DNA of 64,000 bases from Syntrophaceae bacterium (GCA_003141195.1 PLLC01000087.1:2875-66874), one strand, 5' to 3'. Positions 36,329 through 64,000 are shown, numbered from the stretch's first letter. The notes: a model not told the origin generated them from the letters alone. Numbers and translations are program-made.

Positions 36329-36345
36329 GAAAGGAGATGGATGAG

Positions 36346-46747: not shown

Positions 46748-47949
46748 TCGGAAACACCATTCTCCTCGCCCTGCGCGAGATCCGGCGGAATGTCCTGCGC
46801 TCCTTCCTGACCATCCTTGGTATCGTGATCGGCGTGGGGGCCGTGATCACCATGGTGACCATCGGAGGCGGCGCCACCCTTCAGGTCAGGCAGCAGATCG
46901 CGAGCCTGGGGAGCAACATGCTCATCGTGAGCGCAGGCAAGCGGATGGGGCCGGGCCAGGCGAGCAGCGCGGCGCTCTTCAAGGAGGCCGACGCCGAGGC
47001 CATCGACGCCGAGATCAGCGATATCGCGGCCGTCGCCCCGGTCACCACCCAGTCGCTCAAGGCCATCTCCGGAAACCAGAACTGGTCCACCTCCGTGGTC
47101 GGGACCGACAACCGTTATCTCAGGGTCACCAGCCGGGTCCTCAGGACGGGACGGTCCTTCAACGACGGCGAGCGGCGCGGCGGCGCGGCGGTCTGCCTCC
47201 TGGGGGAGACGGTGAAGAAGAAACTCTTCGGCAGCCAGGAGGCCCTGGGAGAGAGGATCCGCCTGCAGAAGTTCTCCTGCGAGGTGGTCGGCCTCCTGGA
47301 GGGAAAGGGGCAGAGCAGCATGGGGATGGACCAGGACGATCTCGTGGTGATCCCGCTGCGCACCTTCCAGCGGCGCGTCTCCGGCAATCAGGACGTCTCC
47401 CTGATCCAGATCTCGGTCCGGGAGGGCGCCTCCACCGACAAGGCCAAAAAGGACATCGAACGCCTGATGCGCGAGCGGCGCCATCTGGGCCCGAGCGACG
47501 ACGACAATTTCACCGTGATGGACATGAAGGAGATCACGAACATGCTGACGGGAACCACCACGATACTCACCGCCCTGCTGAGCGCGGTCGCGGCCGTGAG
47601 CCTCCTGGTCGGCGGGATCGGGATCATGAACATCATGCTGGTGTCGGTGACCGAACGCACCCGCGAGATCGGCATCCGGCTCGCCATCGGCGCCCTCGAA
47701 CGGGAGGTTCTCACGCAGTTCCTCGTGGAGGCGGTGGTTCTTTCCTCATTCGGCGGCCTCATCGGCATCTTCCTGGCCCTCGCCGGATCGGTGTGGCTTT
47801 CGGCAGTGCTCCATGTGCCGTTCGTCTTCAACGGGGGGATCGTCCTGGTCGCCTTCCTCTTCTCGGCACTGGTGGGGGTGATCTTCGGCTATTTCCCGGC
47901 GCTCAAGGCCGCCCGCCTGGATCCCATCGTGGCGCTAAGGCACGAATGA
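46744..47949 (+). CDS. MacB/FtsX-type ABC transporter permease
   Basis: Begins MIGNTILLALREIRRN (ATGA overlap with the ATPase gene). Has a large periplasmic loop and a C-terminal FtsX-like TM bundle. The upstream part of track ORF 45955..47949 is out-of-frame overlap. Confidence 0.85.
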   Translation: MIGNTILLALREIRRNVLRSFLTILGIVIGVGAVITMVTIGGGATLQVRQQIASLGSNMLIVSAGKRMGPGQASSAALFKEADAEAIDAEISDIAAVAPVTTQSLKAISGNQNWSTSVVGTDNRYLRVTSRVLRTGRSFNDGERRGGAAVCLLGETVKKKLFGSQEALGERIRLQKFSCEVVGLLEGKGQSSMGMDQDDLVVIPLRTFQRRVSGNQDVSLIQISVREGASTDKAKKDIERLMRERRHLGPSDDDNFTVMDMKEITNMLTGTTTILTALLSAVAAVSLLVGGIGIMNIMLVSVTERTREIGIRLAIGALEREVLTQFLVEAVVLSSFGGLIGIFLALAGSVWLSAVLHVPFVFNGGIVLVAFLFSALVGVIFGYFPALKAARLDPIVALRHE

Positions 47950-48181
47950 GGCTTCCGCCCCCCTTGCCGCCGATTTCATCCACGCACGGGCAAATTCACG
48001 GATTCAGACAAGTCTGCGGCTGACAACCTTTTCGGCTATTTTGAGGTCAAGGCTGCCTTAAGATACCTCTTGTTTGGCCTGCGGTGAATAGCGGCCTTAT
48101 TCGACGCAATAAATGCGGAGATTGTCCTTGCTTTATGCGGCGAATACGCGGCATAATATCACCAGGGAGTGTCAGAGAATT

Positions 48182-49288
48182 ATGAACTATATCCACAATA
48201 GGAAGAATTGGCCAAAACTGACTTGGAGCCAGGAGCGGCTGGCAGGGCAGCTTGCCGGCGTACGTCATCGGCAGGGGCGGCTCATCGGGCGTATGGAGGG
48301 GCTGGGTTTTTCGCTCCGCAGTGAAGCCGTGCTGCAAACCCTGACCGAGGATGTTCTCAAATCCAGCGAAATCGAAGGTGAAAAGCTGGATAAGGACCAG
48401 GTGCGGTCTTCTATCGCCCGCAGACTCGGACTCGATATCGGCGGACTGATACCGGTTGACCGGCATGTCGAGGGGGTTGTTGAAATGATGCTCGACGCCA
48501 CCGGCCGTTTTGCCGATCCGTTGACCGAGGAACGTCTGTTTTCCTGGCACTCCGCTCTGTTCCCAACCGGGCGCAGTGGTATGACCAAAATCGCGGTTGG
48601 CCGCTGGCGTGATGATCAATCCGACCCCATGCAGGTGGTTTCCGGCCCGATTGGCAGGGAGAAGGTGTATTATCAGGCCCCTGAAGCCAAGCGTGTTTCC
48701 AAGGAGATGAGCGCTTTCCTGAAGTGGTTTAACGGTCCCCAATCTATTGATCCGGTTTTGGCGGCAGGTCTGGCGCATCTCTGGTTTGTAACGATCCATC
48801 CTTTTGAGGACGGTAACGGCCGGATTGCCCGGGCGATTGCGGATATGGCTCTGGCGCGTTCGGAAAATAGCACGCAGCGTTTCTATAGCATGTCGGCGCA
48901 AATTCGCCTGGAGCGAAACGCCTACTACGATATGCTGGGAAAAACCCAAAAAAGCGGCCTGGACATAACCCCCTGGCTTGAATGGTTCCTGGGATGTCTC
49001 GATCGCGCCATTGACGGCGCGGAACATATCCTGGCCGGCATCTTCCATAAGGCCCATTTCTGGGAGGCGCAAACCCAGAAGCCATTCAATGAACGCCAGC
49101 GAGCCGTCATCAACCGGCTGTTCGACGGTTTTGAAGGCAAGCTGACTTCTTCCAAATGGGCCAAACTGGCCAAATGCTCGCAGGATACCGCCCTGAGGGA
49201 CATCGATGATCTGGTGAAGCGTGGTGTTTTGCTGAAAGAGCCGGGAGGCGGTCGCAGCACAAGTTATGCCTTGGCGAACGATGGATAA
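48182..49288 (+). CDS. fic: Fic-family protein (AMPylase-type) with N-terminal DUF4172-like region
   Basis: Catalytic motif HPFEDGNGRIARA. Start at MNYIHNRKNWP (48182). Confidence 0.85.
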   Translation: MNYIHNRKNWPKLTWSQERLAGQLAGVRHRQGRLIGRMEGLGFSLRSEAVLQTLTEDVLKSSEIEGEKLDKDQVRSSIARRLGLDIGGLIPVDRHVEGVVEMMLDATGRFADPLTEERLFSWHSALFPTGRSGMTKIAVGRWRDDQSDPMQVVSGPIGREKVYYQAPEAKRVSKEMSAFLKWFNGPQSIDPVLAAGLAHLWFVTIHPFEDGNGRIARAIADMALARSENSTQRFYSMSAQIRLERNAYYDMLGKTQKSGLDITPWLEWFLGCLDRAIDGAEHILAGIFHKAHFWEAQTQKPFNERQRAVINRLFDGFEGKLTSSKWAKLAKCSQDTALRDIDDLVKRGVLLKEPGGGRSTSYALANDG

Positions 49289-49291
49289 GGA

Positions 49292-50191
49292 TCAGCAGAG
49301 ATATTTTCCAAACCACTGAAAAACCTTTTTCCATCCGTCGACTGCAGCCACCGGCCGATAATCCGCACGATCCACCGCGAAGAAGGAGTGGCCGGCATTA
49401 TCATACGTATGGAACTCGTAGCTCTTTCCCCATTTCTTGAGCTCCGCTTCTGTTTTTGCCACATCCCCGGGCGAGGGACGCTTGTCCTCCCTGCCGAACA
49501 GCCCGAGCAAAGGACAGCTCAGGTCCTTCGTGTAATCGATCGGATCAACGGGTTGACGCGGCGTCAGCCCCTCCTTGCCCGCCCCGACACCGCCTGGGTA
49601 GCAGGCTACTGCGGCGTCGATCCCCCTGAGCGTGCACACGGCCAGGTAGGCTTGCCGGCCCCCGGAACAATAGCCGATGATGCCTACCTTCCCGTTGAGA
49701 TACGGCAGGGCGCGGAGATACCGTATGGCGCCTTCCACATCACCCATGGTGCGGTTGTCCGGCATGCCGCCGGCATCCCGCACGCTGGCGCTGTTTGCCT
49801 CGGGCGTCCCTTTGCCTTCGCGAAAATGCAGATTCGGCGAGATTGCCGCGTAGCCGTGGTACGCGAATTTGCGGGCGATCTCCTTCGACGCTTCATCCCA
49901 GCCGGGCATGTGATGGATCACCACGACCCCGGGGTGGGGGCCGGGTCCCGTGGGACGCGCCAGGTAGGCATCGATCGTGTCGCCCTCGTGCCCGCGCATC
50001 TTCACGATCTCCGCACACATGGCTTCGGACGGCATCCCCTTGGCCGGCTGCGCGGGCTTCGGCTCCGCCTTTGACGCCGCAAGCACCGTCCCTGCCGCAC
50101 CCACCACCATTCCCCCCACTGCTCCGGCCGCAGTCCCCCTGATGAAATCCCTGCGCGTGAGTCCTTTTTGCCTTTTCTCGACGAAACTCAT
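49292..50191 (-). CDS. Dienelactone hydrolase-family protein with twin-arginine (Tat) signal
   Basis: MSFVEKRQKGLTRRDFIRGTAAG Tat motif, then a DLH fold (VVVIHHMPGWDE, IGYCSGG). Confidence 0.75.
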   Translation of the reverse strand: MSFVEKRQKGLTRRDFIRGTAAGAVGGMVVGAAGTVLAASKAEPKPAQPAKGMPSEAMCAEIVKMRGHEGDTIDAYLARPTGPGPHPGVVVIHHMPGWDEASKEIARKFAYHGYAAISPNLHFREGKGTPEANSASVRDAGGMPDNRTMGDVEGAIRYLRALPYLNGKVGIIGYCSGGRQAYLAVCTLRGIDAAVACYPGGVGAGKEGLTPRQPVDPIDYTKDLSCPLLGLFGREDKRPSPGDVAKTEAELKKWGKSYEFHTYDNAGHSFFAVDRADYRPVAAVDGWKKVFQWFGKYLC

Positions 50192-50447
50192 AAGTATTTT
50201 CCCTCCTTTAAAGAGATGCTTCGGTCTCGTGGAATGTTCCGTAGTATACTTCATCCCGTAAGGGGAGGCAACTTCTCGGTCCACTCTTTCAGCTCACTCT
50301 TTCGGAGGGAGGATCCGGCAGGGGGGACCGGAAAGCGAGAATTCGGTTGCCTCGCGGCGATTCACTGTGATAACCAGATCCCGGGAACCGGCGTATCACA
50401 GTCCTGGATTCATTGCTGCGAATGTGGACTCATTCAGGGAGGGGCGC

Positions 50448-51710
50448 GTGGTCAAAGCTTCACGGGAATTCCAGATTTTTGCAAAACCCGCAGGGGCCGC
50501 CTGCAACCTGGATTGCAGCTACTGTTACTACCTGCGTAAGGACCTGCTCTATCCGGACAGCGACTCGTTTCGCATGCCCTACGATCTGCTGGAGGAGTAC
50601 ATCCGCCAGCAGATCGCAATCGCCCCCGAACCGGAGATCAGTTTCTTCTGGCACGGCGGCGAGCCGACCGTGCTCGGGATAGACTATTTCCGCAAGATAA
50701 CCGGGCTCCAGCGCAAACACCTGCCCCCCGGCAGGCGTATCAACAACGGCATCCAGACGAACGGCGTACTCCTCGACGACGACTGGTGCCGCTTTTTTGC
50801 GGCTGAGAATTTTGCCGTCGGGCTCAGCCTCGACGGTCCGCCGGCGCTGCACGACGTCTATCGCGTGACCAAGGACGGGAAGCCCACGCACCGGCAGGCG
50901 ATGCAGGGCTATCGGCTCCTGCGCAAACACAAGGTCCCGGTGGATCTCCTGTGTGTCGTGCATGCTGAGAACGTCCGGCACCCCCTCCAGGTGTACCGCT
51001 TCTTCAAGGAGATCAAAGCCCAATACATCAGCTTCATCCCCCTCGTCGAGCCGCAGCCGGCTTCCCAGGGCGGCGTGAGCGCGCGCACCGTGCCGGCGGA
51101 AGCGTTCGGCGCCTTCCTGTGCGTCGTCTTCGACGAATGGGTGCGGCAGGACGTCGGGCGGATCATCGTGCAGATGTTCGAGGAGGTGGCGAGGCCGGCA
51201 TACGGCCAGGACCATTCCCTGTGCATCTTCCGGTCCACCTGCGGGGATGTCCCGGTGGTCGAGCACAACGGCGACTTCTATTCGTGCGATCATTTCGTCA
51301 CCCCCGAGCACCGCCTCGGCAACATCCGCACGACCCCGCTTATCGAACTCATCGAACATCCGGCGCAGCTCGCCTTTGGGCAGGCCAAGCAAGAGGCGTT
51401 GCCGCGCTGCTGCCGGGAGTGTGAAGTCAGGGCCATGTGCAACGGGGGATGCCCGAAGGATCGCATCATCCGGACCCCGGACGGCGAAGCGGGGCTGAAC
51501 TACCTGTGTGCGGGCTACCGCAGGTTCTTCGCCTACTGCCGCGACTTCACCGGGCAAATGGCGGCGCTGCGATTGGCTGGGCAACCGCCCGAGCGGATGA
51601 TGCAGGTTCTCCGCGACGCGGAGGTCAAGGCGCATCCCGCAGTCGGGCGTAACGACCCCTGCCCCTGCGGCAGCGGCCGCAAATACAAGAAATGCTGTTT
51701 GAACGCATGA
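50448..51710 (+). CDS. Anaerobic sulfatase-maturase-like radical SAM/SPASM enzyme with C-terminal SEC-C motif
   Basis: [10 protein letters not shown] radical SAM motif, Cys-rich SPASM region and a C-terminal [16 protein letters not shown] 50448 is preferred (GGGAGGGG RBS); the track ORF begins at 50367. Confidence 0.75.
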
Positions 51711-51752: not shown

Positions 51753-52499
51753 ATGCCGTACGAAGCGATGTTGGCGGAAACCGTAAACGTATGCGGGCAC
51801 AAGGGCGACATGATCGACGCGTACCTGGCGCGTCCCACCGGACCCGGCCCCTACCCGGCGGGGGTGGTGGTGATCCACCACATGCCCGGCTGGGACGAAG
51901 CGACGAAGGAGATCACCCGCAAGTTCGCCCATCATGGCTATGCGGCCATCTCGCCGAATCTGCATTTCCGCGAAGGCAAAGGGACGCCCGAGGAAAACAG
52001 CGCAAGCGTGCGGGCCGCCGGCGGCATGACGGATAATCGCACCATGGGCGATGTGGAAGGAAGCATCCGGTATCTCCGCACCCTGTCGTATCTCAACGGC
52101 AAGGTCGGCATCATCGGCTATTGTTCCGGGGGCCGGCAAGTCTATCTGGCCGCGTGCACGCTGAAAGGGATCGACGCCGCGGTTGACTGCTACGGCGGCG
52201 GTGTCGTGGCGCCCCCGGAGGAACTCGACGCGCGTCAACCAGTAGCCCCGATCGACTATACAAAGGATCTGCGTTGTCCTTTGCTCGGACTCTTCGGCAG
52301 GGAGGACCAGCGCCCCTCGCCCGGGGACGTGGCCAAAACCGAAGAAGAACTCAAGAAGTGGGGAAAGACTTACGAGTTCCACACGTACGACAATGCCGGG
52401 CACGGCTTCTTCTCGGTCGATCGTCCCAGCTATCGGCCGGAGGCTGCGGTCGACGGATGGAACCGGGTCTTTCAATGGTTCGGCAAATACCTCCGCTGA
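51753..52499 (+). CDS. Dienelactone hydrolase-family protein, no signal peptide (paralogue of 49292..50191)
   Basis: 248 aa, about 80 percent identical by eye to the mature part of the Tat-signal paralogue. Confidence 0.75.
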   Translation: MPYEAMLAETVNVCGHKGDMIDAYLARPTGPGPYPAGVVVIHHMPGWDEATKEITRKFAHHGYAAISPNLHFREGKGTPEENSASVRAAGGMTDNRTMGDVEGSIRYLRTLSYLNGKVGIIGYCSGGRQVYLAACTLKGIDAAVDCYGGGVVAPPEELDARQPVAPIDYTKDLRCPLLGLFGREDQRPSPGDVAKTEEELKKWGKTYEFHTYDNAGHGFFSVDRPSYRPEAAVDGWNRVFQWFGKYLR

Positions 52500-52616: not shown

Positions 52617-52874
52617 GATCGGCGTGAAGGTCTTTCCGGTTGCGCGTTCATTTATTATTTATTGAAGTCGAGGTTTTCAGCTGATGTGCTTGTATAGCAG
52701 ATTTCTTTTGGTAATACACGAGTGCGATCAATGAAAAGATGAATTGTGCCGGTCATTGAGGCAACTTCAAATCTTCACTATGAAGTAGGATTCTCTCCCA
52801 ACACTTACGGAAAGAAACCTTCAAAAGAGAAGCTGAGAGGAGAATATTTTGGAAAGAAAATAGAATTTGTGATG

Positions 52875-53633
52875 CTATGATTTTTTCAGCATCATCAACT
52901 CGTCATCCATGTTGTGGCGGATGCAATCCAGCCGAGGCGAAGCCATTAAGAGACTTTCTGAGGCTGTCCGCTTCAGACGAAACGGGAACAGGCTTGTGTT
53001 ATCCAGCAGCTCCGCGAGCCTTGTCGAGCCGTTAGCCTTCGCATGAAGGGATGCTTCAATCAACCATGCAATGAGCTGAGGATCGTCAATGGATACAGGC
53101 AACCCCCGACGATAGACGCCCTTTGTATCGGTTTCCTGCAGCACATCCCAGGCGATAAAAGATCTGAGGACGTAACGAACCCTTCGGAAAACTGATTCCC
53201 GCTCACCGTACTGTTCACAGATACGGCGCTGAACTTGTTCCGCCGTGATGGTTTCCTGAAGCCGCAGCAACCGCCCTACTTGGCCCGATACGGCGCTCCA
53301 AAAGGGATAAGTCGCCATGACCATGGCCCAATGGATCGCCAAGCGCTCCCCGCCCGATTTTATACGCAGCAACTCCAAACCGCTTTCCCTGAATTTGGCA
53401 AGTTCCCTTGGTCCGGATAACCAGACGTTCATCAAAATAGTCACGGTTTTAGAAAGCGAACCCCGGACAGTTGGACTGGAGGTGGGAAAACTGGTTGCTA
53501 AAAATTCCACCATGCTTTGCTTGACTGTGTCCGGAGGATTGCCGGCCAAAGCAAGCTGCGCCACACGTTCCAACCATTCCAAGCGAACGATCCTGTCAAT
53601 GCCAATCTGCTGTATTCGACTGTTGGGTTTCAT
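52875..53633 (-). CDS. BREX-associated helical protein, in the position and size expected for type-3 BrxA
   Basis: 252 aa, ATGA-coupled to the pglZ stop, last gene of the operon. The BrxA assignment rests on position only. Confidence 0.35.
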   Translation of the reverse strand: MKPNSRIQQIGIDRIVRLEWLERVAQLALAGNPPDTVKQSMVEFLATSFPTSSPTVRGSLSKTVTILMNVWLSGPRELAKFRESGLELLRIKSGGERLAIHWAMVMATYPFWSAVSGQVGRLLRLQETITAEQVQRRICEQYGERESVFRRVRYVLRSFIAWDVLQETDTKGVYRRGLPVSIDDPQLIAWLIEASLHAKANGSTRLAELLDNTSLFPFRLKRTASESLLMASPRLDCIRHNMDDELMMLKKS

Positions 53634-55630
53634 CCGGCCTTCCTCTCTATTTGAACAAGAGGAACGATAACTTCCTCTATGGATATCCCGCCGTGACTGA
53701 CGAGACGTTCTTTTTCACGAACGAACGCTTTTCGAGAAGGCGCCAGTAAGGGCAGATAATCGTTCGGCAACCCAACGGGCGGCCATTCCAATGCGGTCGG
53801 AAAACGATCCGCGACCTTTTTCCTCAGAAGCGGATCAGAATAGATGCGAGCCCGTTCGCCGCGCAGGTCGGCAACCGCCCCTTCCGAGGGACGTCCACAA
53901 CCTTCTGCTTCAATGTTTCCGTGATCTGATGTCAGAAAAACCCGGAATCCCCGGTCGAGGAGCAAGTCAAGAAGAGACGCCAGGTAAGACTGTTCCGCCC
54001 ATTGACGCACCTGGTTGTGCATGCCCGCCGTGCCCAGTTCCATGCCGTGCATGATTCTATCGATCTTGTCGATGACCAGCCCCGCCACTCTTATCCTGGG
54101 ATAAGAAAGCAGTTCTTCAAGATGGCTCAGGTTCCCGTCACCAAATCCCTTGGCGTAGGAGATCTCGTTCGGCGTCAGTCCTTGATCTGCCCAAAACTGT
54201 GACCACAAGGCAGATTCCTTCTCGGTCGTCAGGATGCTGTTCGGAAAGAAAATCGGCGGCTTGCCGGCGAAGAGGGCCTGCCGCGAGATTGAGGTGATTG
54301 TCGGAATCCAGGCGAATACAGCGCTCTCACGGAACTGGATTATGGGTCGCTGGGAGGCAATTATTTTACGCACCGCGATCCACTGGTCTAAGGCCAGCCC
54401 GTCAATCACGAGGAGAGCGGCCTTGAATGTCTTGTCATCGACCACCTGGCGCGCCAGGTACCGGGGCAGGTGATGGAGCATGACCGGTGGCGCAGGAGGC
54501 AGGTTGATCAGCCCAGCGAACCGCCGGGTCAACCAGGAAGTGAAGGCATGGTCAACATGGGTCTGAATTTCTTTGATTCCTTGATCAGTTTTGGCATCAG
54601 CGAGCGCCTCATGGGCAATGGCGATCAACTCCGCCCAACCGCGGGCAAACAATAACCAATCTCCATATCGAACATCCTCAGCCGGAATAGCAGTGCGGAT
54701 GCCAGCGAGCAGCTTTTCCAGACGACGCGTTCGATCTCCGGCAGAGTCGGTTCGAACTCCGATGCCGGCCCACGTCTTGGCGATCATTCCCGCCCGTTCG
54801 TGGGGTACCGGGTGCAGAAGACCTTCAAGAAAGAATGTGTCCATATAAACGCGGACATCATGGTGATCAAACGGCAGATCCGGCGGTCCCGGTATCTGGA
54901 AGATGTATCCGGCATATTCTTCTACACCGGTCTGGGTGTCCTGAACCTGCCCACGGTTCAGGAACAATGGCCAGCGTTCCTGCAGGAAGGACAAAAAAGC
55001 TTCCCGATCCGGAACGATTCTTTCCAGAGGCCACCCAGCGAAGCTGTCAGTTTGCCGGAGGATCTGGTTGAAGCGGTTGTCGAGAACCAATGGTATACGC
55101 TGTCCGCGGTAGTGACGGCGCAGGAGTACCCTCAGCAGATCGGATGGCTGCTTGATGAGTTCCACTGCGATCTCAAATACATGCCGAAGGACGAACTCCT
55201 TGGTGGCGTTATCACCGAGCTGCCCGGGCATATGGCGCCGCTGGGCTGTGTACAAGGCGTCAAGATCGCCACGATCCAGGACAGTAATGATGGGATAACT
55301 GAGTGTCGGAAAGATGTCACCAAGATTGAAGAACAGCTTGCGACCCGCCTGAAGCAAATCGAAGGGCAATGTGCTGAGATCGCTGGCCTGGGATCGCAAC
55401 ACCACCACAAGGTCGGTCTGTTCTCCGCAATCCCATCGCGAACGGAACCCGGATTCGTAGGCATAGCGGAAAGCGACAGGGTCCTCAAAAGGAATGAGCT
55501 CGAATCCCCGCTCCCGGATGCCCTCCAGTATTCCTTCCTCCAGCAGCAGCCCATCCGGGTCCGCCACCAGGGTAAGCCGCGAAACCTGCGGGGTGAATTC
55601 CTTGAGAATCTGATCACGCCAGCTACTCAT
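53630..55630 (-). CDS. pglZ: PglZ-domain alkaline-phosphatase-superfamily protein (BREX)
   Basis: LLVIDGLALDQW and VFLTSDHGNIEAEG PglZ signatures. Start at MSSWRDQI (55630) preceded by AGGAGGG. Confidence 0.85.
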   Translation of the reverse strand: MSSWRDQILKEFTPQVSRLTLVADPDGLLLEEGILEGIRERGFELIPFEDPVAFRYAYESGFRSRWDCGEQTDLVVVLRSQASDLSTLPFDLLQAGRKLFFNLGDIFPTLSYPIITVLDRGDLDALYTAQRRHMPGQLGDNATKEFVLRHVFEIAVELIKQPSDLLRVLLRRHYRGQRIPLVLDNRFNQILRQTDSFAGWPLERIVPDREAFLSFLQERWPLFLNRGQVQDTQTGVEEYAGYIFQIPGPPDLPFDHHDVRVYMDTFFLEGLLHPVPHERAGMIAKTWAGIGVRTDSAGDRTRRLEKLLAGIRTAIPAEDVRYGDWLLFARGWAELIAIAHEALADAKTDQGIKEIQTHVDHAFTSWLTRRFAGLINLPPAPPVMLHHLPRYLARQVVDDKTFKAALLVIDGLALDQWIAVRKIIASQRPIIQFRESAVFAWIPTITSISRQALFAGKPPIFFPNSILTTEKESALWSQFWADQGLTPNEISYAKGFGDGNLSHLEELLSYPRIRVAGLVIDKIDRIMHGMELGTAGMHNQVRQWAEQSYLASLLDLLLDRGFRVFLTSDHGNIEAEGCGRPSEGAVADLRGERARIYSDPLLRKKVADRFPTALEWPPVGLPNDYLPLLAPSRKAFVREKERLVSHGGISIEEVIVPLVQIERKAG

Positions 55631-55838
55631 AGCTGCTGCCCTCCTGCCAAGCATTCTTAAGTCCAAGGCAGGCTGCCTCTATGCGGCTGCCCTTCAGGCA
55701 CATGGTATTACGTTTGCACCATGGCAGACAAACGCGGCAGATCGTCGCGCCCCAAGGCGTTTGGGCTTCGATGACCTGACAGAGTTGCCCGTGGTCCGGG
55801 CTGTAGTACCATGAGCCTTGTGCAAAGCCACCCATCAT
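55623..55838 (-). CDS. 71-codon ORF, possible stub of a deleted gene
   Basis: ATGA-coupled to the upstream gene. The first ~35 residues (FAQGSWYYSPDHGQLCQVIEAQTPWGATICRVCLP) look like a small SH3/Tudor-like beta module. The remainder is Cys-rich junk overlapping the pglZ RBS and start. Confidence 0.3.
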   Translation of the reverse strand: MMGGFAQGSWYYSPDHGQLCQVIEAQTPWGATICRVCLPWCKRNTMCLKGSRIEAACLGLKNAWQEGSSYE

Positions 55839-56920
55839 TTCCGTTTCCTGGCTCCGAAATTATGTCTTTGCTTTTCCCACACGCCCTCGACATCGACCCC
55901 GTTGTTTATGGCACTTTGGAGCCTGTCCAAGGCTGCCTTGCTGTAACCTTTGAATGTTGAAGATTTCCGTCGGAGGACTTTAAAGTAGTCCTGGTCATCC
56001 TGAATCCCCAGCTCAAGCAACAGGGCACTGGTCTTGGGTCCGGACAAGCCGAGCTTCTTGGCGAGATCGTCCCGGCCGAGGTTGTACTTATCCCAAATGT
56101 TGACCTCCTGCTTCACCAAGGTTCCGACGGCAGGTTCACCGTCTTTGGCCACGCGGAAGGCAAGATCAGCATCCTTCTTGATCCGGAGATAGATCGGAAT
56201 GCCTTCGCCTTGGGTATCAAGCTTGAGCTGTGCGATTTCGGGGAGGATGATGGACCATTCGTCTCCCTGCCGTCTTCTGTTGATTGCCTTTCGCAATTCG
56301 CCTTCGGTCACCCGTTCGGCATCCTCGCGAGTCGCCGTGGCCAAGGCGAGAATCGGTCGCAGTCTGGCTGCAGCCTGAATCCCTCGGCGACTTCCAGCCT
56401 GCAGCAGTTCGTCAACCTGACTCAGTTCACTATCGATCAGAACCTTCAGGTCTTTGGGTGGTCGCGACGAGACCGGCAGCACACGTTCAGGGATGCAGTC
56501 AGCAAGCCTCTCCTTGAAGACCCGGCTGAGCAGGTCGTCAAAAAGCGTGACCGCGGCTTGGGCTTGAAGGTAAAGAAGGTCCTCTGAGATGTCCTGGTAA
56601 TAATGAACGGCGGTGTCCCGGTGGGCATCCAAGATGGACAAGGTGGCCCGCTCATCAGCAGTGATCACCTTAATTCCGTTCTGGGCCACCTCCAAACACT
56701 TGTCGAAGCCGAAGGAGTACTTCTCTCCTTTTGCATGAACGGTCCCGGTCCTGTCTTTGATAATCGCCTTCAGCAGCATCTCGAAGGCGTGATGCAGAAG
56801 AATCAAGACGCTCTCGGAACGCCCCTGGTCATGGGGTCTATTGAACAGCTCGATGCCAAGCACCAAGGAGTTGATGGCGCGGTTTTTGAGTTCAGCCACA
56901 TCTCTCTTGGCTTTGGGCAT
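55835..56920 (-). CDS. DUF3644-like protein with C-terminal HTH-like region
   Basis: The N-terminal NRAINSLVLGIELFNRP...HHAFEMLLKA pattern is recalled from DUF3644; not verified. Confidence 0.5.
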   Translation of the reverse strand: MPKAKRDVAELKNRAINSLVLGIELFNRPHDQGRSESVLILLHHAFEMLLKAIIKDRTGTVHAKGEKYSFGFDKCLEVAQNGIKVITADERATLSILDAHRDTAVHYYQDISEDLLYLQAQAAVTLFDDLLSRVFKERLADCIPERVLPVSSRPPKDLKVLIDSELSQVDELLQAGSRRGIQAAARLRPILALATATREDAERVTEGELRKAINRRRQGDEWSIILPEIAQLKLDTQGEGIPIYLRIKKDADLAFRVAKDGEPAVGTLVKQEVNIWDKYNLGRDDLAKKLGLSGPKTSALLLELGIQDDQDYFKVLRRKSSTFKGYSKAALDRLQSAINNGVDVEGVWEKQRHNFGARKRK

Positions 56921-56923
56921 GAA

Positions 56924-59779
56924 TCATTCCTCCCCCGCGCGGGTGAGTGCTTGGTCGTACCACATGAGGAGCTTTGGGTCTTCCTGGAGAACATTCTCCG
57001 GGATCTTCTTAGCTACCTCGATAATGGTGCGGTAACCATCTTCCGATTTATCTTGCCATGCCTTTTTGAAGCCAGCGCGGACGGCCTCGATGCGGAACAC
57101 CTTCAGTCGCTTCTGGCTGGTCGTCCGGTATTCCTCGAACTCCTTGAACAGGGACCTCTCGCGTAGCTTCTCCAGGTCGCCGGCCTTGTTCGGGTCGGGC
57201 ACGTACCAGCGGTCCTTACCCTTGGCGCGGAGGCTCTCGTCGTCCTTGGGCAGGTTGCGCAGCTCCTTGAAGTTGGTGGACAGGTAGCTGTGAATCTGGT
57301 TCGGCACTTCGCCTTTGCCGTCGTAGCGCAGGAAGTTCTGTTCCATCAACTCGGATAGCTCCAGTGGCTTTTCGTACTTCTGCCAACCGCCAAGTTCCTT
57401 AATGAACAGTGGATGAATATCCTGAAATGTTTGTGTCTTGTCTTTGAGTAGTTGGCGCAGCCATGCGATGGCAGTGGATTCGTCAGACACAAACACCGAC
57501 ATTTGCTCCATGCCTCCTGCTGTCAGCTTCTTCTTGTCGTATTCGGCCACCTGGTCGGGCAGGAAATACATGCCATCACGATAAGAAAAGCGCTGAGACA
57601 GCCCTTCCTGGAAAGCCGCGCTGTCCAGCGGCACGGGATAACCTTTGCGGACGAAGTAGGCCACCATCTGGTCATATAGAATGCGGGGGTCGCGCTCGGT
57701 GACAGCAATCAGGTGCGTGCTGGCTCCTCGCTTGACGACGGAGAGGTATTTCAGGTGTGTGCGGACGAAATCCCAAACGCCTTCTTCGGTAGTGGCTTCC
57801 TTTTGGAAACGCTCTTCGAATCCGTCGTTGGGCTTGTAGGCGGAAATGACGAGGTCTTGTTTGACCGAAGTGGTGTTTGTTACAGCATTGAAGCTGCCCT
57901 GTTTCTTATTGAGAGAGGAAACATTGGCTACTATAAAGCCAGCTTCAGTCAGTGCGGTCTGAATACTGTTCCAGACAGAAGCTTTGGTATTGGAAAACTC
58001 CACGGTCATCCAACGACCTGGCTTCAATACACGGTAAGCCTCCTTGAAACATGCCGTCATAAGCTGGCGGTATTCTTTTGCACCTTTACCTTGCGTCTTG
58101 TTTTCGATGGCTTCAGATTTATTGTTTGTCCATACTTTTAGCCAAGATTCCCAGAGTAAGTTGAGTTCTGAGTAATTCAGATTAGAACCAAACGGTGGGT
58201 CAATAAACATGTAGTCCAAGGAGTTGTCATCCATGAACACTAACTGATTGTTGCTTTGAGACGAAACTATTGCCGAATTCGATTCTGGACATATTGATTT
58301 CAGTCCTCTCAAAACGAAATCGATATTCCTCCCTACAGTGAGAACGGGATTCGGCGGTGTAATCAAAGACGCAATGTAAAGCGTTCCCGCCAGGGGGCCG
58401 CCACCTTTTTTATCAGATCTGAATCGTCTTAGTTTAGAGGCGTATGGACTCGCCGCAGTGTGCGTTAGAAGGCATGCACGAGATACTCTCGACGACTCTA
58501 CTTGGTGATAATGATTCCAGATACTTGCCAGTTCATAAAGTGAGTTTTGCGTAAAAAAGTGATGCACATGGGTGATGCCGATGCGTAGCGGTTCACCAGT
58601 TTTATCTCCTTTGGGAATAGTAGTTGTCGGGAACCAATAGGGAATCTCGCCCCTCTCAATCTTTTCAATCAACGCCAAATCAAAGATATCTGGCACCTTT
58701 TCCGCCCGCTTGCCGACCACTGTGTAGTTGATGAGCACAGGCACCTGCTTGGCCTGCCTGATGGTCGCCTTGATAGCGCTGTCGTACTTGGTCACCCAGG
58801 CCCGCTCCATATTCCGCTTGGTCAAATTGGCCGAACAGTGCGGGCAAGGGAATTCGTCTTTTAGGCTTCCCGCTTCCTTATCCACCGCCGTTTCCCAGAA
58901 GACGATCTCCCTCGTACATCCCTGGCAGACAAAGACATCCGACCAGACGGTGAAGTTGATTTTGCACTTGGTCTTGCCATCGCTGTGGAGTGTCTCATAC
59001 ATCCAGCCGCATTCATCCTCGACTTCCTTCAAAATGCGTTTTGCTTCGCGCTCAAATTCACGGACGTCCACCGGCGTGTTGTAGTTGTAAGCGATGAAGG
59101 TGGCGGCTGGCGAAAGGTCATTCAGCACCGCTCGACGCGCGCCGAGTTTCGAGAACGGTTTCCAGACCGTCTTTCCATTTTCATCCGGCTCTTGTTGGGA
59201 GATTGTGCCATCCTTGTCCACCCTATAACCCAAAGACTCAACGACCGTTCTGTCACCGCACAGTTGCGCCGCTACGCCGGTCATACCCGTTCCACAGAAT
59301 CCGTCGAAGACCACATCTCCTGGCTCGGTGTAATGCAGGATGTACCGCATAATGGCCTTGTGCGGCACCTTGGTGTGGTAGGAGTGGGCGTTGTAAATCG
59401 GGTCGTTCTTCCCCTCGCTCACGTCAGCAGCGAAAGGTTCCCGGCTGTAAGGCTTGCTCTGGTCGTAGGGTTTGCCGTAGTGCTTGATGAAATCCGCGAT
59501 GAAGGGATTCGGGCAGGCGGTGTAATACGGCGGATCGGACAGGGCCAGGATGTCCTCGTCCGTGCCGATGGGGAACCCCTCGATCTTGCGGAAGTCTGGG
59601 TCCTTCAGCTTCTCGCTTAGCTTCTCCAGGAAATATTTCCTCCGCTCCTCGTCGTTCGGGAAGGTCATGCCGAGACATTCGACAGGCTGACTTTTTTCTT
59701 CCAGCACATTCTCCTCGTAGGACTTCTCAAAGAAGTCTGATTGAGCTTCGGCAAATAACTTTTCTGAAGGTCTGCTCAT
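56924..59779 (-). CDS. pglX: Large site-specific DNA methyltransferase (N6/N4 class), in the BREX PglX position
   Basis: SAM motif VVFDGFCGTGMTGVAA and catalytic-type FIDPPFG, plus an N-terminal SDPPYY; 951 aa. Confidence 0.85.
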   Translation of the reverse strand: MSRPSEKLFAEAQSDFFEKSYEENVLEEKSQPVECLGMTFPNDEERRKYFLEKLSEKLKDPDFRKIEGFPIGTDEDILALSDPPYYTACPNPFIADFIKHYGKPYDQSKPYSREPFAADVSEGKNDPIYNAHSYHTKVPHKAIMRYILHYTEPGDVVFDGFCGTGMTGVAAQLCGDRTVVESLGYRVDKDGTISQQEPDENGKTVWKPFSKLGARRAVLNDLSPAATFIAYNYNTPVDVREFEREAKRILKEVEDECGWMYETLHSDGKTKCKINFTVWSDVFVCQGCTREIVFWETAVDKEAGSLKDEFPCPHCSANLTKRNMERAWVTKYDSAIKATIRQAKQVPVLINYTVVGKRAEKVPDIFDLALIEKIERGEIPYWFPTTTIPKGDKTGEPLRIGITHVHHFFTQNSLYELASIWNHYHQVESSRVSRACLLTHTAASPYASKLRRFRSDKKGGGPLAGTLYIASLITPPNPVLTVGRNIDFVLRGLKSICPESNSAIVSSQSNNQLVFMDDNSLDYMFIDPPFGSNLNYSELNLLWESWLKVWTNNKSEAIENKTQGKGAKEYRQLMTACFKEAYRVLKPGRWMTVEFSNTKASVWNSIQTALTEAGFIVANVSSLNKKQGSFNAVTNTTSVKQDLVISAYKPNDGFEERFQKEATTEEGVWDFVRTHLKYLSVVKRGASTHLIAVTERDPRILYDQMVAYFVRKGYPVPLDSAAFQEGLSQRFSYRDGMYFLPDQVAEYDKKKLTAGGMEQMSVFVSDESTAIAWLRQLLKDKTQTFQDIHPLFIKELGGWQKYEKPLELSELMEQNFLRYDGKGEVPNQIHSYLSTNFKELRNLPKDDESLRAKGKDRWYVPDPNKAGDLEKLRERSLFKEFEEYRTTSQKRLKVFRIEAVRAGFKKAWQDKSEDGYRTIIEVAKKIPENVLQEDPKLLMWYDQALTRAGEE

Positions 59780-59782
59780 GGT

Positions 59783-60559
59783 TTAGGCCTGCATCACTTC
59801 CTGCAAATAGCGGGTTATCCGATCGCGGTTTGTTCCCAAACTGGAATACTGTTTCTCACAGACGTCGCTGAAGCGAGCCAAAACCTTACGGTTGACCGTT
59901 TCCTGATCTTCAAAAATACCCAGGGAACGGTTGGTCAAGTTCCATTTCTCATACTGGAGCAGTGAGATTGTGGCGTCCCGGATTTTGTCATCATTGGGAA
60001 GGGCAAAAACAAACAAGGGACGAGGCATGCCATTCACGCGACAGTCCACGGTATACATGCCCTGGGGATCGTGGTTCTGGTCCTTCCAGTCGAATATCCG
60101 CCGTTCTTCGGGCACGGCCGCCGCCATCAGTTCCTGGAAATCCTCCAGAAAGGTTGAGCGAACCCGTTCCCTGGTCAGATAAGATACATCGGATATCTTA
60201 AGCAGAGCCTGGATAAACGAAAACAAGGCGTCGCCATACTGCTCATTCTCTATCCTTAAAACCAGCTCACCGTCCTGATCCCCCACCTGAAAGGCAGAGA
60301 GGGCATTATTGATGATCTTCTGACGGTTGCCGCGATGCAGATCCTTCTCGTCGAGGTCATAGGTCAGGTGCATGTAGGTGTGGCCTTCATCGGAAAGCGT
60401 CCACGCTGTCTGATCACGTCGGAGCACGATGGACAGATGGTCGCCATCCTCAAACATGAAGGGGGTGAAGACGCGATAACGGTTCACACCTTCATGCGCC
60501 AAGTTGACCTTGGCGCAAACCCTTTCACGAAATGACTGTTCTATGGATTCGGTCGTCAT
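59783..60559 (-). CDS. DUF1828/DUF1829-like protein
   Basis: 258 aa. Family recalled from overall pattern and size; not verified. ATGA-coupled to the upstream 162-aa ORF. Confidence 0.5.
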
Positions 60560-61044
60560 GATTCGATCTCCTTGAATAAGGACAATTGCGAGTCCTGAAT
60601 GGCGTCAATATGACAATCTTCCATCAGGCAACGGAGTGCAGAAGGAAAATCAGAATAGCGATCCGATGGTTCCGCATAGGCGTCTTCCCGTGTACCCATA
60701 TCCTGATAACGCTCCGTGGCTTGATGTATGTGAAAGTCATAAAATGATATTATCTCTATGATATTGGTATGTTCGTGGCTTTTTCCGTTATAGCGTCGAA
60801 GACGGAATGTCTGGCTCGTATCGGGTGGGCAGAAGGCGAGAATAATTGAAAAATCGAGGTGATTGTAGTTGCTCTGCCGAAAGATCAAACGAAATTCATT
60901 GCCGTCGGCGCCAATAATGTCCAGTTCACGTTCCTTGTGTCCTCTCTTTTCGCGCAACTGGATTTTGGAGCGATAATTTCCCGGCAAAGGTTTGGGTTCA
61001 TTTATCAATCCGTTGATCTCCTGATCCGAAAATCTTGCCGCCAT
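60556..61044 (-). CDS. Hypothetical protein (162 aa), no family recognised
   Basis: Clean ORF, coupled to the next gene. Conserved-looking block [14 protein letters not shown]...[11 protein letters not shown]. Confidence 0.6.
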
Positions 61045-61108
61045 TGTGGTACCTCATTGAAATTATTCTACATAAGCAAAGTTACACTGTAAACATGTTC
61101 CGCTCATC

Positions 61109-61125
61109 GCAATTGCCGCAATTGC
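61109..61125. promoter_or_regulatory. Two tandem GCAATTGC palindromes
   Basis: GCAATTGC at 61109..61116 and 61118..61125, within the 279-bp AT-rich gap upstream (minus strand) of the 162-aa ORF. Confidence 0.3.
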
Positions 61126-61323
61126 AACTTGGGCCTCGACTTGGACCTCTTGGGCTTCATCATGGTCCTGGACTTTGTGGCAGAAAATAGTCATTTATGA
61201 TACCATACTTAGTACTGCGGTTCATAAATTCGGTTACGTATTTTTCGAATCCGCATGCTTAATCATCGCAGGATCGGCTACAAATGGAACGTCACCGTAA
61301 TCACGAAACGCTGTACTTAGTAA

Positions 61324-64000
61324 TTACTCCAGCACAATACGTACCTTGCCGGGCTCTTTACCCTTAATTAGCTGATCCAGGTAGTCTTCGAACCGCTTTC
61401 TCATTTCCGCTGGGGTGACCGGTGAGCCGCCCGTAAGGAGCGCTGATCGCAGGGCATCGGTCTTGACTAAAACCTTGATCAATCCTGTGAGCGCATCCTG
61501 CAGGGCGCTGATGAAGTCTTGGCCTATAACATCTGGAAGGATGCGTTTTTTGATAAAGCCGTCCACTATTTTCCGCTGGTCAGGCTTGAGGAGGGCCAGT
61601 TTCTCCCTGGTCGTAGGGTATTCAAGGTTTGCCAGCAAGGTTTGGGTCCAATCAACCACCAGTTTGTCCAGTTCGCTGTCCAGATTGTCGAGCGTCATGC
61701 CGGCTGGGGTTGTTGCAGACTCGGATGCAGGTTTGTGGCCGCAGTGCTGGCAGACAGGCGCTGCGTTGAGTTCCTGTTCGGTGAGGGCGAAGCAGCTCCT
61801 CAGGCCTGCAAGCCGGTTCTGGAAATCGGTCAGGTGCTGGAGGGGCATGAGATTGATGGTGGAGAGTTTTTGTAATACCTTGAGACGTTCGTCGCCCATG
61901 AGCAGGGCCTTGCGCTTGTCCTCCTTTACGCCCAGCCGCGCCTTGCTGTGGTGGGCAAGGTATATCTGGATATAGGCTTTTTTTAGGTCCGTCAACCGGC
62001 GCTGGGTTTGCTGGCGGAAGGCGGCCGCCCCGCGTTTGTCCGGGTCGCTAATTTGCCCGAGGACTTCATCGCGCACGAACTTCACCTTGTCGAGCCATTC
62101 ATGTCCGGTAGGCAGGACCGCTTCCGCTGTGGAAAGGTACGACGCGACCGTCCCGAGCTCATTGGCCAGTTCCTGCAGGGATTCAATTTCCTTCAGGGAT
62201 TGAAATCCTTCGTGATGGCCCTTTACTTCCGGGGCATCGTAACGGAAATTCTTCAGTTTCCCCGGCGTGGTGTACGCCTGAAGCGATTCGAGGAATGTCT
62301 TGGTTTCTTCCAGTCGGGCTTTCAACTTCTGAACTTCATCCTCGGACAGGAGACTTCGCCCCCAGAAGAACAGGCCATTATGTAAATTTTGCTGGGCGAT
62401 GACAAGCCGGTTGACTGTTTCCGAGACGGCCTTTTGCATTTGCTGAACCGGTGTCTCATCCGCTTGGGTAATCTGTTGAACCATTCCTGGAGGGAGTCCC
62501 AACAGTTCAAAAAGCGCTTTGAGCGCCGGGATATTCCAGTCTTTAGGGCGTTCGACGTGTTTGAATTGTACCAGCTCTTCCACGCCGGTACCGGCCATTT
62601 GCGGTAAGATAGTGGCGTCGAACTTTTTACCGGGAATGGCCAATACAATTTCTCCGGCATAAACCAGCGCGGCCAGTACCACCACCGCCCATTCCGGTTC
62701 CAGTCGCAGCGTTTGCGGCGCCAGATACTCGACCCCGAGAACCTCCTGGAACAGTTCAGACCGATTGACAACTTGGCCAGCACCTTTCTTCTTTGCATTG
62801 TCGAGAATATATCGGGCGTATTTTGACTGATACGGATCAATCCGCTCCCCGTCGAGGAGTCCCAAGGCATCCATAACCGCCGTTGCTTGCTTGGTGCGGT
62901 TCTGGCCGGCAATGGCCCGCAAGGCGTCCTGTGCCGCCTGGGCGCGGTTGGCGCCCGTGATGAGCACCGAAAAGAAGGGGTAATCCGGCGCCTGATCCCG
63001 AAAATGGCTGTCGAGACATATTCCCGCGACGGTATTCACCATATCGCGAAAATTGATCCGCTCATGGGGCGCTATGCCGGACAGCTCGCGGATCGACTTT
63101 CCCTTTGCCCATTCGGTGAGGGGTTTGGTCCGTCCCTGACAGGTGACATCGAAGGCTGTCGTCATGTTCTTCTGGAGCCATTGGACCAGATCCCGCAGAA
63201 AGTTCGACGCCTTGGATTCATATGTGTTTTTGGCATGGCCAGATGCCGTGGAGGCAAGATCGAGGGCCGCCGTATAGCCGCGTAACGCCGTGCGGAAGGT
63301 TTCATCGTCATTTTTCAGGTGAAGGAATAATTCGTCCGGTTTCTTCTCATCTTTGAAGGACGGCGCCTCGAAAGGTTGAAGGAAGTAAAGATAAAAATCG
63401 CGGGGCGGCACTGCCGTGGATCGCTCATTGGGCGCGCCGAAAAAGAGGTACCCAAGGCGTGCGGCCTTCCGTTCCAGCCACTCGATCTCATGCTGCCAGA
63501 TCTTGTAGCCGGTGACATAGGTGTAATCAGTACATTCCATGACCCGCTTCAGGGCTTCATAATAATAGCGATCAAGCTGCGAGGGTTCGAGACTCTCGGT
63601 GCGATTACGAACCTGTGCGTCGTAATCCACGGTTTTATGAACGTCGAGATAGAACTGCCCGCTCAGCCTTCCATTGACGTCCGTCTCTGTTGCCGACAGG
63701 AATTGACCATTGACGGCTTGGCTGATCACTCGTAACGCCGATTCAATTTCTCCGCGCAGATCGTCGGCAGGATCTCCGCCAAGATCGGCTACGTTTGGAT
63801 CAAAGAGGCACAGAGAATCCCTCAATGATTCCGATGTCAGGCCCACAGGCGTTTCAATGCTGCCGACAGTTAGCCGGTGCAGGCTCAGGCCATGGATAAT
63901 CCTTCCGGCGAATTCCTTATTCTTGCCTTTCGGGTAATTGCTGTTGATCAGCCCCTCAAGTTTTGCGCTGCACTCGATGACCTCCCTGATTTCCGGGATG
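61324..64000 (-). CDS. Large BrxC/PglY-position protein (DUF6079-like by recall), 5' end beyond the window
   Basis: The reading frame stays open from 63846 to base 64000 (translated by hand), so more than 890 aa are visible. Its position upstream of the methylase in a PglZ operon supports the call. The N-terminal ATPase part is not in the window. Confidence 0.5.

Follow-up and report, generated by a model that had tools for sequence, protein, structure and literature searches.

What is a bacteriophage exclusion (BREX) locus that has the core genes of type 3 but no helicase, and that holds three additional genes between them: an undescribed subtype, a decaying remnant, or a known system that has lost one of its parts? 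The question is raised by a minus-strand island at the right-hand end of a 64,000-nt stretch of DNA from a Syntrophaceae bacterium (GCA_003141195.1 PLLC01000087.1:2875-66874), which, in its full length, we call the window. A first-pass annotation, made from the sequence alone, had taken the island for either an undescribed BREX subtype or a BREX hybridised with other modules. We conclude, with a probability of about 0.8, that it is a helicase-deleted derivative of type 3 BREX with two embedded candidate defence cassettes, and that its core has been maintained and is not decaying. The locus is an informative variant of a known system, not a new system.

The type 3 core and its missing helicase

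Canonical type 3 BREX consists of brxF, brxC/pglY, pglXI, brxHII, pglZ, and brxA (Goldfarb et al. 2015, as cited in PMC12839542). We assigned the genes of the island to families with profile hidden Markov models (HMMs) from PADLOC, Pfam, and NCBIfam (Table 1). The open reading frame (ORF) calls contained all eight minus-strand ORFs of the first-pass annotation where it had placed them, and the PADLOC profiles run on the eight proteins gave both PglZ and BrxC-type matches. The type 3 backbone that it had recognised is indeed present. The open-ended protein of more than 890 residues is BrxC, of which 891 codons are visible, uninterrupted by an in-frame stop as far as the edge of the window, and the 951-aa methyltransferase is PglXI, whose FDGFCGTG and IDPPFG motifs fall on invariant columns in an alignment of four PglXI sequences. 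The PglZ call is borne out by a BREX_PglZ_3 score far above its cutoff and by a Pfam PglZ match (3e-24); the start of this protein is most likely the ATG at 55630, as called on four metagenome contigs, and not the TTG at 55666. What had been described as a 252-aa helical protein of no stated identity is a genuine ORF, which the HMMs name as BrxA.

An exact-protein look-up found the identical locus on metagenome contigs L001-L004 (listed in 54 blocks of the collection), which extend it past position 64000. Beyond the window edge lie the 5' end of brxC, giving a 1248-aa protein at L001:5975-9721 that covers model positions 1-1231, then brxF, and upstream of it an HTH_17/excisionase-type gene (68 aa), which shares one base with brxF. 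This HTH_17 leader gene recurs in about a dozen further type 3 loci. The full order is HTH_17, brxF, brxC, the DUF6978-like and DUF1828 genes, pglXI, the DUF3644/HEPN gene, a 71-codon ORF (hereafter, the scar ORF), pglZ, and brxA.

The genes are as tightly coupled as the annotation had noted. Overlaps of 4 nt join the 162-aa gene to the 258-aa gene, the 361-aa gene to the 71-codon ORF, and pglZ to brxA; the 71-codon ORF overlaps pglZ by 8 nt, and gaps of 3 nt lie on both sides of pglXI. The sole exception is the AT-rich spacer of 279 nt after brxC. For this spacer no homolog turned up in the fetched loci or in the rest of the window, and it is missing from every other locus with the DUF6978/DUF1828 cassette; in L010, L011, L034, and L088, by contrast, the cargo gene begins 4-10 nt past brxC. 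Across the island, promoter-like and terminator-like sites are no more frequent than in shuffled sequence. The G+C content of the island is 0.46-0.57, against 0.65-0.69 further left.

Between pglXI and pglZ, where type 3 loci have the Snf2-type helicase gene brxHII, only its codons 1-39 and its last six codons are present, both within the 71-codon ORF. The annotation had seen no helicase in the window, and none lies just beyond it either: the 20.5-kb contig L001 contains no BrxHII-like sequence anywhere, so the absence holds for the whole locus, and a helicase hidden just outside the window can be discarded. Since the other core models are fully covered, the locus has a type 3 backbone in which every core gene except brxHII is full length. 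It resembles BREX type 3 in its PglZ_3, BrxF, DUF6079-type BrxC, PglXI, and BrxA, in gene order, in its location on a single strand, and in the upstream HTH_17 gene, and differs from it in the truncation of brxHII and in the three extra genes that occupy two intergenic junctions. Because the helicase is one defining feature of the canonical type and fails here, we file the locus as a helicase-deleted type 3 derivative. The "BREX-related" DUF499/DUF1156 systems (PMC12839542) have a homologous ATPase, methyltransferase, Snf2-helicase, and HTH_17 leader but are without PglZ, BrxA, and BrxF; as the window locus has PglZ_3, it is BREX proper and not one of these systems.

The 71-codon ORF records how the helicase was lost. 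Its residues 1-39 (MMGGFAQGSWYYSPDHGQLCQVIEAQTPWGATICRVCLP) align with the N-termini of intact BrxHII proteins up to ...CRVCLP (for example, ...GEWYYSPDHGQLCQVIEAQTLWGETICRVWIP... in L028), with 50-84% amino-acid identity over about 35 loci. Conserved residues of the stub are mutated, TLWGE to TPWGA and RVWLP to RVCLP (L to P, W to C). The blastn homology to the 5' end of brxHII stops at 55723 and restarts at 55644, 14 nt ahead of the pglZ ATG. The 78 nt in between are not filler but include a match to the 3' end of pglXI: scar residues 48-68 (LKGSRIEAACLGLKNAWQEGS) are identical in 12 of 21 positions to residues 892-912 of the PglXI of the same locus (LKVFRIEAVRAGFKKAWQDKS; BLASTP E 2e-4). 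At its end the ORF shares 8 nt (ATGAGTAG) with the start of pglZ, an arrangement also seen with intact brxHII; intact BrxHII proteins with this overlap end in ...VEGGGHE and ...EGGDHE before the stop in L083 and L015, and VEGGSHE occurs in L095. The stub, the PglXI match, and the BrxHII C-terminal codons together mean that the scar reads BrxHII(1-39), eight codons, PglXI(892-909), and BrxHII(last 6) in one frame. Judged from its sequence, this composition shows that brxHII was removed by deletion, leaving an in-frame chimeric micro-ORF.

The N-terminal match is clear only when the BrxHII ORFs of the genome loci are extended upstream. Compared with two plasmid BrxHII proteins, whose annotated starts omit the first ~20-25 residues, the 71-codon ORF gave no BLASTP match. 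When JGI metagenome contigs were scanned for this junction, a single one was returned, which gives no census. The same chimera of a stub followed by a PglXI fragment was found at L034:14637-14921 and L027:5973-6244.

Three loci that are otherwise diverged have brxHII 5' stubs with a common last codon (~39), at 55722 in the window, L027:5973-6061, and L034:14637-14740, and in each of them a pglXI 3' fragment follows the stub. The shared end could mean that a single ancestral joint has spread, or that breakage is preferred at this point.

Helicase loss and selection on the remaining core

How common is the loss? A tblastn search of plasmids with PglXI gave three informative loci: a canonical type 3 locus on a Leisingera plasmid, a Roseomonas plasmid locus in which an inserted 624-aa gene separates brxC from pglXI, and an Enterococcus faecium plasmid locus whose pglXI-pglZ interval has no helicase gene. 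A genome scan by PglXI alignment, restricted to one genome per species, confirmed 562 relatives, from which 80 loci were fetched and laid out by tblastn; the 57 loci among them that show both pglXI and pglZ form the base of the helicase count. Full BrxHII occurs in 36 of these, and brxHII stubs in three (the window locus, L011, and L043). L087 has a Snf2-type helicase downstream of brxA, where L031 has a short BrxHII-like fragment. No trace of a helicase was found in 16, and in six of these, including L008, which has the closest PglXI in the genome scan, pglXI is directly followed by pglZ. In total, 20 of the 57 loci have no full helicase. This agrees with a 2026 survey (PMC12839542), in which BrxHII is limited to 77% of the type 3 taxa and absent in 23%. 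Helicase-less type 3 loci and embedded cargo are thus already published. The scattering of helicase-less loci on a neighbor-joining tree of PglZ, built without support values, implies roughly nine independent losses.

The closest PglZ relatives of the window locus that were fetched (86-94% amino-acid identity; five groups on 11 contigs, L095-L105) lack BrxHII in all five groups. The six loci, window included, differ from one another in chromosomal setting and in the cargo ahead of pglZ. In the window it is the DUF3644/HEPN gene before the 71-codon scar. The scar in a short form follows an ABC ATPase and a 168-aa protein in L096 and L097, a YopA-like protein in L102 and L103, and a trio of a 238-aa protein, a protein kinase, and a 397-aa protein in L104 and L105. 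In L095, L100, and L101, an ABC ATPase with a Schlafen protein is followed by the last ~6 brxHII codons, and in L098 and L099, AAA_15-DUF3696 with a 355-aa protein is followed by a relic of BrxHII residues ~50-82. The scar ...CKRNT...SYE-stop is thus common to the window and three of the five relative groups. Its short form, ...WYYSPDHGQLCQVIE..TLWG.TTCRVWLPGCKRNTKRLKG[SN]SYE-stop, lacks 66 nt of the window scar, deleted in frame between AGGGCA(G/A)C repeats.

We estimated selection from pairwise Nei-Gojobori ratios of nonsynonymous to synonymous divergence (dN/dS). For pglZ, dN/dS was 0.17-0.21 among the scar-sharing loci, at a synonymous divergence (dS) of 0.15-0.26, and 0.17-0.25 over the whole helicase-less clade. 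For brxA it was 0.14-0.44 (0.14-0.22 in comparisons with the window), and for brxC 0.13 between the window and L098; dS ranged from 0.15 to 0.5 over the comparisons of the three genes. Ratios well below 1 after the helicase was lost indicate that the remaining core genes stayed under purifying selection long afterwards. By this measure of sequence divergence, the helicase-less state is shown to be old and maintained, in a locus that kept moving and swapping its cargo.

PglXI behaves differently from the other core genes. It is only 68-79% identical to that of the close relatives L098 and L104, with dS saturated, against 86-94% for PglZ and BrxC. As PglXI is far more diverged than the rest of the core, the locus is a mosaic, and the divergence suggests replacement of the allele at the methyltransferase, so that the specificity may have changed.

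These data bear on the idea that the island is a decaying, non-functional BREX remnant, in which phage restriction ended with the helicase and at most an orphan methyltransferase survives among unrelated passengers. The deletion and the mutated stub are what such a remnant would show, degraded type 3 loci do exist (BrxC of L088 is in three ORFs), and the type 1 protein BrxL, the proposed functional counterpart, is regarded as an unwinding component (PMC12839542). We nevertheless hold decay to be quite improbable: BrxF, BrxC, PglXI, PglZ, and BrxA each match their model at full length, the low dN/dS of the scar-sharing pglZ is matched by brxA and brxC, the helicase-less locus occupies at least five different chromosomal settings and so kept spreading, and in every variant the scar ORF is open, in frame, and still overlaps pglZ.

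In the maintained, helicase-deleted system that we favour, PglXI would methylate a motif in host DNA, and BrxC, PglZ, BrxA, and BrxF would discriminate and exclude unmethylated incoming DNA, both by analogy with type 1 BREX. Exclusion without the Snf2-type helicase would mean either that restriction is reduced or altered or that the helicase is dispensable. Independent backup defence of the abortive-infection type would be supplied by the co-transcribed HEPN protein and by the PDC-M24-like pair.

Several points weigh against this interpretation. The searched literature contains no experiment on any type 3 BREX, so that the role of the type 3 helicase is only inferred and the roles given to PglXI, BrxC, and PglZ are type 1 analogies. 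By analogy with BrxL in type 1, loss of the helicase could abolish restriction and leave methylation only. The purifying selection on pglZ and brxA opposes such a restriction-dead state, although phage exclusion is not thereby proved. The count of independent losses comes from a tree that has no support values. The shared scar may have spread by recombination instead of by descent with pglZ, which is unlikely because the scar and pglZ physically overlap. Finally, the DUF6978/DUF1828 pair and the C-terminal half of the DUF3644 protein are uncharacterised.

Together with its relatives, the window locus amounts to a natural deletion series, in which the same core, with the helicase cleanly removed, has been kept for a long time (synonymous divergence about 0.2) and moved between genomes. 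This makes it possible to test whether BrxHII is needed for methylation, for exclusion, or for neither. In the literature that we searched, we found no description of the scar anatomy or of core-gene arms on cassettes, nor of a clade without the helicase in which the core is under purifying selection and the cargo rotates, nor of the wide distribution of the DUF6978/DUF1828 pair.

Cargo cassettes at two junctions

Comparison of the type 3 loci showed that the three extra genes are two cargo cassettes, located at the brxC-pglXI and pglXI-brxHII junctions, which hold interchangeable, mostly defence-type genes. Both intervals vary from about 0 to over 6 kb; more than 300 bp lie between brxC and pglXI in 31 of 53 loci, and between pglXI and brxHII in 27 of the 36 helicase-bearing loci. 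The two junctions together contain 173 cargo ORFs in 90 clusters, the largest with 29 Schlafen-AlbA_2/HATPase_c_4 proteins. Other families are Ppl-like PHP with ABC ATPase, NsnB/HEC-03-like AAA_15-DUF3696, YhcG nucleases (PDC-S02), HEC-01-like ATPases, and Mrr-STAND NTPase. The second suggestion of the first-pass annotation, a BREX hybridised with other modules, is correct.

Same-strand cargo nested between core genes is a known arrangement, described for defence genes embedded in BREX, DISARM, and type I restriction-modification (RM) loci, such as BrxU in pEFER and the HEC and PDC candidates. Auxiliary or backup effectors embedded in BREX core loci are reported in PMC12839542, and HEPN and Schlafen effectors, which occur in the present loci too, are among the classes reported. 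The PDC families of PADLOC have a "guilt by embedding" origin as candidates embedded in BREX, DISARM, or RM loci (Payne et al., bioRxiv 10.1101/2024.01.29.577857). The families represented in the window, PDC-S19 and PDC-M24, are such candidates, and we found no experimental test of either in the literature searched.

Two other irregular arrangements appeared among the type 3 loci: in L036, pglXI is split by a ~1.4-kb insertion, and L045 has a second copy of pglXI as well as part of a second BREX set.

The cassette at the pglXI-brxHII junction consists of the 361-aa protein, whose DUF3644 label was correct. It matches the PDC-S19 profile over its full length and has the HEPN Rx4-6H motif, its R101-DTAV-H106 (Rx4H) being invariant in three homologs; DUF3644 is classed as a HEPN domain (PMC3710099). 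Another DUF3644 protein, HEC-08, embedded in Hma and composed of a DUF3644 HEPN domain and zinc-finger-like domains, is a validated defence that needs the histidine of the motif (bioRxiv 10.1101/2024.01.29.577857). The window protein shares with HEC-08 the N-terminal DUF3644/HEPN domain and the motif. It differs in its C-terminal ~200 residues, which are uncharacterised, and in that its activity is only predicted; it gave no match to the PADLOC HEC-08 profile. From its sequence features it is most likely an RNase-type abortive-infection backup effector. The gene also stands beside intact BrxHII in L027 (85% amino-acid identity) and L024 (63%).

The cassette at the brxC-pglXI junction is a pair of genes. 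The 258-aa protein was correctly labelled DUF1828-like, and it matches PDC-M24B over its N-terminal half. For the 162-aa protein, no Pfam DUF6978 match was obtained at E<=0.01, and its score lies below the PDC-M24A threshold, in which it differs from PDC-M24 proper. Among 40 close homologs (61-94% identity), however, 11 match Pfam DUF6978 (PF22398; best E 1.7e-7), and a protein of the temperate Pseudomonas phage phita81A, 34% identical to it (E 2e-22), matches PDC-M24A at 1e-8. The protein also matches phrog_27326 at 8e-26. The partner of the phage protein is 29% identical to the 258-aa protein and matches PDC-M24B at 1e-13. As the phage homologs match PDC-M24A and PDC-M24B, the window pair is best described as a putative divergent branch of the PDC-M24 family. 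Within the PDC candidates, then, the DUF3644 protein is a direct full-length match and the DUF1828 protein a direct match, and the partner is linked through its phage homolog.

Structure gave little further information. The AlphaFold2 model of the 162-aa protein (predicted local distance difference test score, pLDDT, 72) has no significant PDB match (best E 0.37), and its sole BFVD match is an uncharacterised siphovirus protein. The model of the 258-aa protein is poor (pLDDT 57), and its weak matches, a secretion-chaperone-like N-terminal half and a receiver- or restriction-endonuclease-like C-terminal half, are unreliable. Sequence and profile searches of the PDB with the three cargo proteins gave nothing below E 0.25. 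We did not adopt an HNH/His-Me-finger assignment for the His-rich motif of the 162-aa protein (SHEHTN...HIH), for which only single weak PADLOC matches (E about 0.02) were found.

Both families are large: the 162-aa protein is well conserved and has 2391 homolog clusters, and the 258-aa protein has 4267. The two genes were always adjacent (L010, L011, L034, L088, L089, L091-93, and phage L094). They lie between brxC and pglXI in L010, L011, and L034, of which L010 and L034 have intact BrxHII. Outside BREX, the pair occurs in DUF499/DUF1156 BREX-related systems (L091-L093), beside a lone N6_N4 methyltransferase, and in phita81A (L094, PQ738200.1), where it stands at 3474-4765, just downstream of the cI repressor gene and on the same strand. 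In BREX-3 loci, in the DUF499/DUF1156 systems, and beside the lone methyltransferase, the two genes also overlap each other. A position downstream of cI is typical of exclusion genes expressed in lysogens. The pair is a widespread defence candidate (~2400 and ~4300 sequence clusters) that is nested in BREX-3 and DUF499 systems and found downstream of phage cI.

In L091-L093, which are contigs from metagenomes or metagenome-assembled genomes, the pair directly follows a Snf2-NOV_C helicase gene, and a QatABCD-like block comes next in L092 and L093. In L088, the pair is intact beside a brxC broken into three ORFs.

Could the extra genes make the locus a new BREX subtype, as obligate components that replace the helicase in function, with the core as the platform for sensing and methylation from which a plug-in effector is driven? 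In favour of this, none of the six helicase-less loci in the close PglZ clade is without cargo where the helicase would be, the scar ORF provides translational coupling of the cargo into the operon, and purifying selection acts on the core genes in the absence of the helicase. The cargo in that position is nevertheless non-homologous among close relatives, from the HEPN protein and the two ABC ATPase combinations to the AAA_15-DUF3696, YopA-like, and kinase-containing sets. The cargo families of the window occur beside intact BrxHII in L027, L024, L010, and L034, and the pair occurs outside BREX altogether. Helicase-less loci without cargo exist, in which pglXI is directly followed by pglZ (L008, L072, L075), and most of the helicase-bearing loci have cargo in the same bay. 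The extra genes are swappable, and we rejected them as core components. A new subtype therefore seems very unlikely, and the proposal of an undescribed one is not upheld: a deletion took out the helicase gene, of which the first 39 and last six codons remain, and the extra genes are passengers of known families. The search for syntenic loci found them to be common, unrelated passengers; no canonical BrxHII accompanies them just outside the window.

A related possibility, which we regard as unlikely but somewhat less so than the two alternatives above, is that in this lineage the helicase slot has become a swappable effector bay. The five-gene core would then be kept by selection as a methylation and sensing platform, into which unrelated effectors are plugged by recombination through short core-gene arms, with the scar ORF retained. 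The plugged-in effectors would, with the same low likelihood, be the HEPN protein, the ABC ATPases, the Schlafen protein, the kinase-containing trio, and the YopA-like protein, and the scar ORF might in that event, which we likewise doubt, serve as the right-hand recombination arm and as a translational coupler feeding ribosomes into pglZ. Were the core indeed to license or activate effectors, the outcome would be a modular sensor-effector architecture of a kind that has not been described in BREX.

For the helicase-deleted derivative with embedded cassettes, the loci also reveal how the cassettes are likely to move. A span of exactly 1285 nt, comprising the last 28 codons of pglXI, the DUF3644 gene, and the first 39 codons of brxHII, is 80.7% identical in nucleotide sequence between the window and L027, and their PglXI proteins are only 62% identical. 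Duplicated core-gene arms are present in L010, L027, L034, and L074. L010 has a duplicated brxC 3' fragment ahead of the 162-aa gene; two cassettes of L027, and likewise two of L034, are separated by a brxHII stub and the pglXI 3' fragment that follows it, and the joint at L034:14637-14921 reads ...CRIWL, then EKLKVFRLKAVRAGFKKTWQ...TRSGEET before the stop. These comparisons show, so far as sequence can, that cassettes travel with short pieces of the flanking core genes, as a consequence of which stacked cassettes leave joints of a brxHII stub and a pglXI fragment. Such arms are not mentioned in the descriptions of embedded defence that we consulted. In the simplest reading, cassettes would be exchanged by homologous recombination through the short arms, and stacking would leave stub-plus-fragment joints, one of which the ancestor of the window locus would have had. 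A deletion reaching from within the pglXI fragment to the last brxHII codons would then have followed in this ancestor, possibly via short CAGGAGGG/GAGGG similarity. The locus in this way displays physically how embedded defence cassettes move, which helps in reading untidy metagenomic BREX loci.

Feature coordinates and flanking genes

Table 1. Coordinates of the island genes, the parts of the scar, and other features (window positions unless a contig is named)
Feature	Position	Strand	Evidence
brxA, 252 aa, final operon gene	52875-53633	-	PADLOC BrxA 9e-92, model 2-249/251
pglZ, BREX-3 type, alkaline-phosphatase superfamily, 666 aa	53630-55630	-	PADLOC PglZ 3e-302, model 1-664/666; NCBIfam NF033449 BREX_PglZ_3 845 bits, cutoff 250
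Scar ORF, whole, 71 codons	55623-55838	-	PADLOC BrxHI/BrxHII model 2-38/933, E 1.5e-6
Scar part 3, last six brxHII codons (EGSSYE) and stop	55623-55643	-	blastn homology to brxHII 3' end/pglZ restarts at 55644
Scar part 2, 8-codon linker (WCKRNTMC) and in-frame pglXI 3' relic (LKGSRIEAACLGLKNAWQ = PglXI residues 892-909)	55644-55721	-	BLASTP
Scar part 1, brxHII 5' stub, codons 1-39, start of Tudor-like N-terminal domain	55722-55838	-	start codon overlaps DUF3644 stop
361-aa protein, N-terminal DUF3644 (HEPN) domain	55835-56920	-	PADLOC PDC-S19 (PDLC04951) 1.9e-117, residues 5-354 vs model 2-352/357; Pfam DUF3644 1.2e-15
pglXI (brxXI), type 3 BREX N6-adenine DNA methyltransferase, 951 aa, full length	56924-59779	-	PADLOC PglXI E=0, model 7-918/919; Pfam N6_N4_Mtase
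258-aa protein, DUF1828, PDC-M24B-like	59783-60559	-	Pfam DUF1828 1e-27; PADLOC PDC-M24B 1e-20, N-terminal half only; 4-nt overlap with 162-aa gene
162-aa protein, DUF6978-like, divergent PDC-M24A	60556-61044	-	homologs; no direct PADLOC/Pfam match
AT-rich 279-nt spacer, brxC to 162-aa gene	61045-61323	-	one sigma-70-like -35/-10 match at 61093-61065
brxC (pglY-type P-loop ATPase, DUF6079), 3' 891 codons	61324-63999, open to window edge at 64000	-	PADLOC BrxC E=0, model 359-1231/1231; Pfam DUF6079 E=0
brxF, small P-loop/iSTAND protein specific to type 3	L001:5459-5932, outside window		PADLOC BrxF 1.6e-69; NCBIfam BREX_3_BrxF 180 bits, cutoff 50
Fic/DOC protein, N-terminal DUF4172	48113-49288	+	in lower-G+C patch 47500-49500
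Dienelactone hydrolase gene 1	49292-50284	-	paralogous to gene 2
Radical-SAM/SPASM gene with C-terminal SEC-C motif	50367-51710	+	between the two dienelactone hydrolase genes
Dienelactone hydrolase gene 2	51753-52499	+	paralogous to gene 1
Thiamine pyrophosphate (TPP) riboswitch	36174-36280	+	Rfam RF00059, 64 bits vs gathering score 54

No tRNA gene was found at the island borders, and no integrase among the genes called on the identical contigs. Past the right edge of the window, the low-G+C island (0.46-0.50) continues upstream of HTH_17-brxF at L001:2400-5200, with genes for an NT5C/HAD-like protein of 183 aa and a SIR2 protein of 261 aa, for which the PADLOC matches are weak.

To the left, where the first-pass annotation had described gene fragments, a 375-bp spacer is instead followed by intact genes, namely the two for dienelactone hydrolases, the radical-SAM/SPASM gene, and the Fic gene. 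The patch around the Fic/DOC gene has a G+C content of 0.55-0.59, against 0.65-0.69 to its left, and may have been acquired separately, as a small segment; it lies about 3.5 kb away from the BREX island. Further away, the TPP riboswitch lies just upstream of a 433-aa ORF at 36337-37638.

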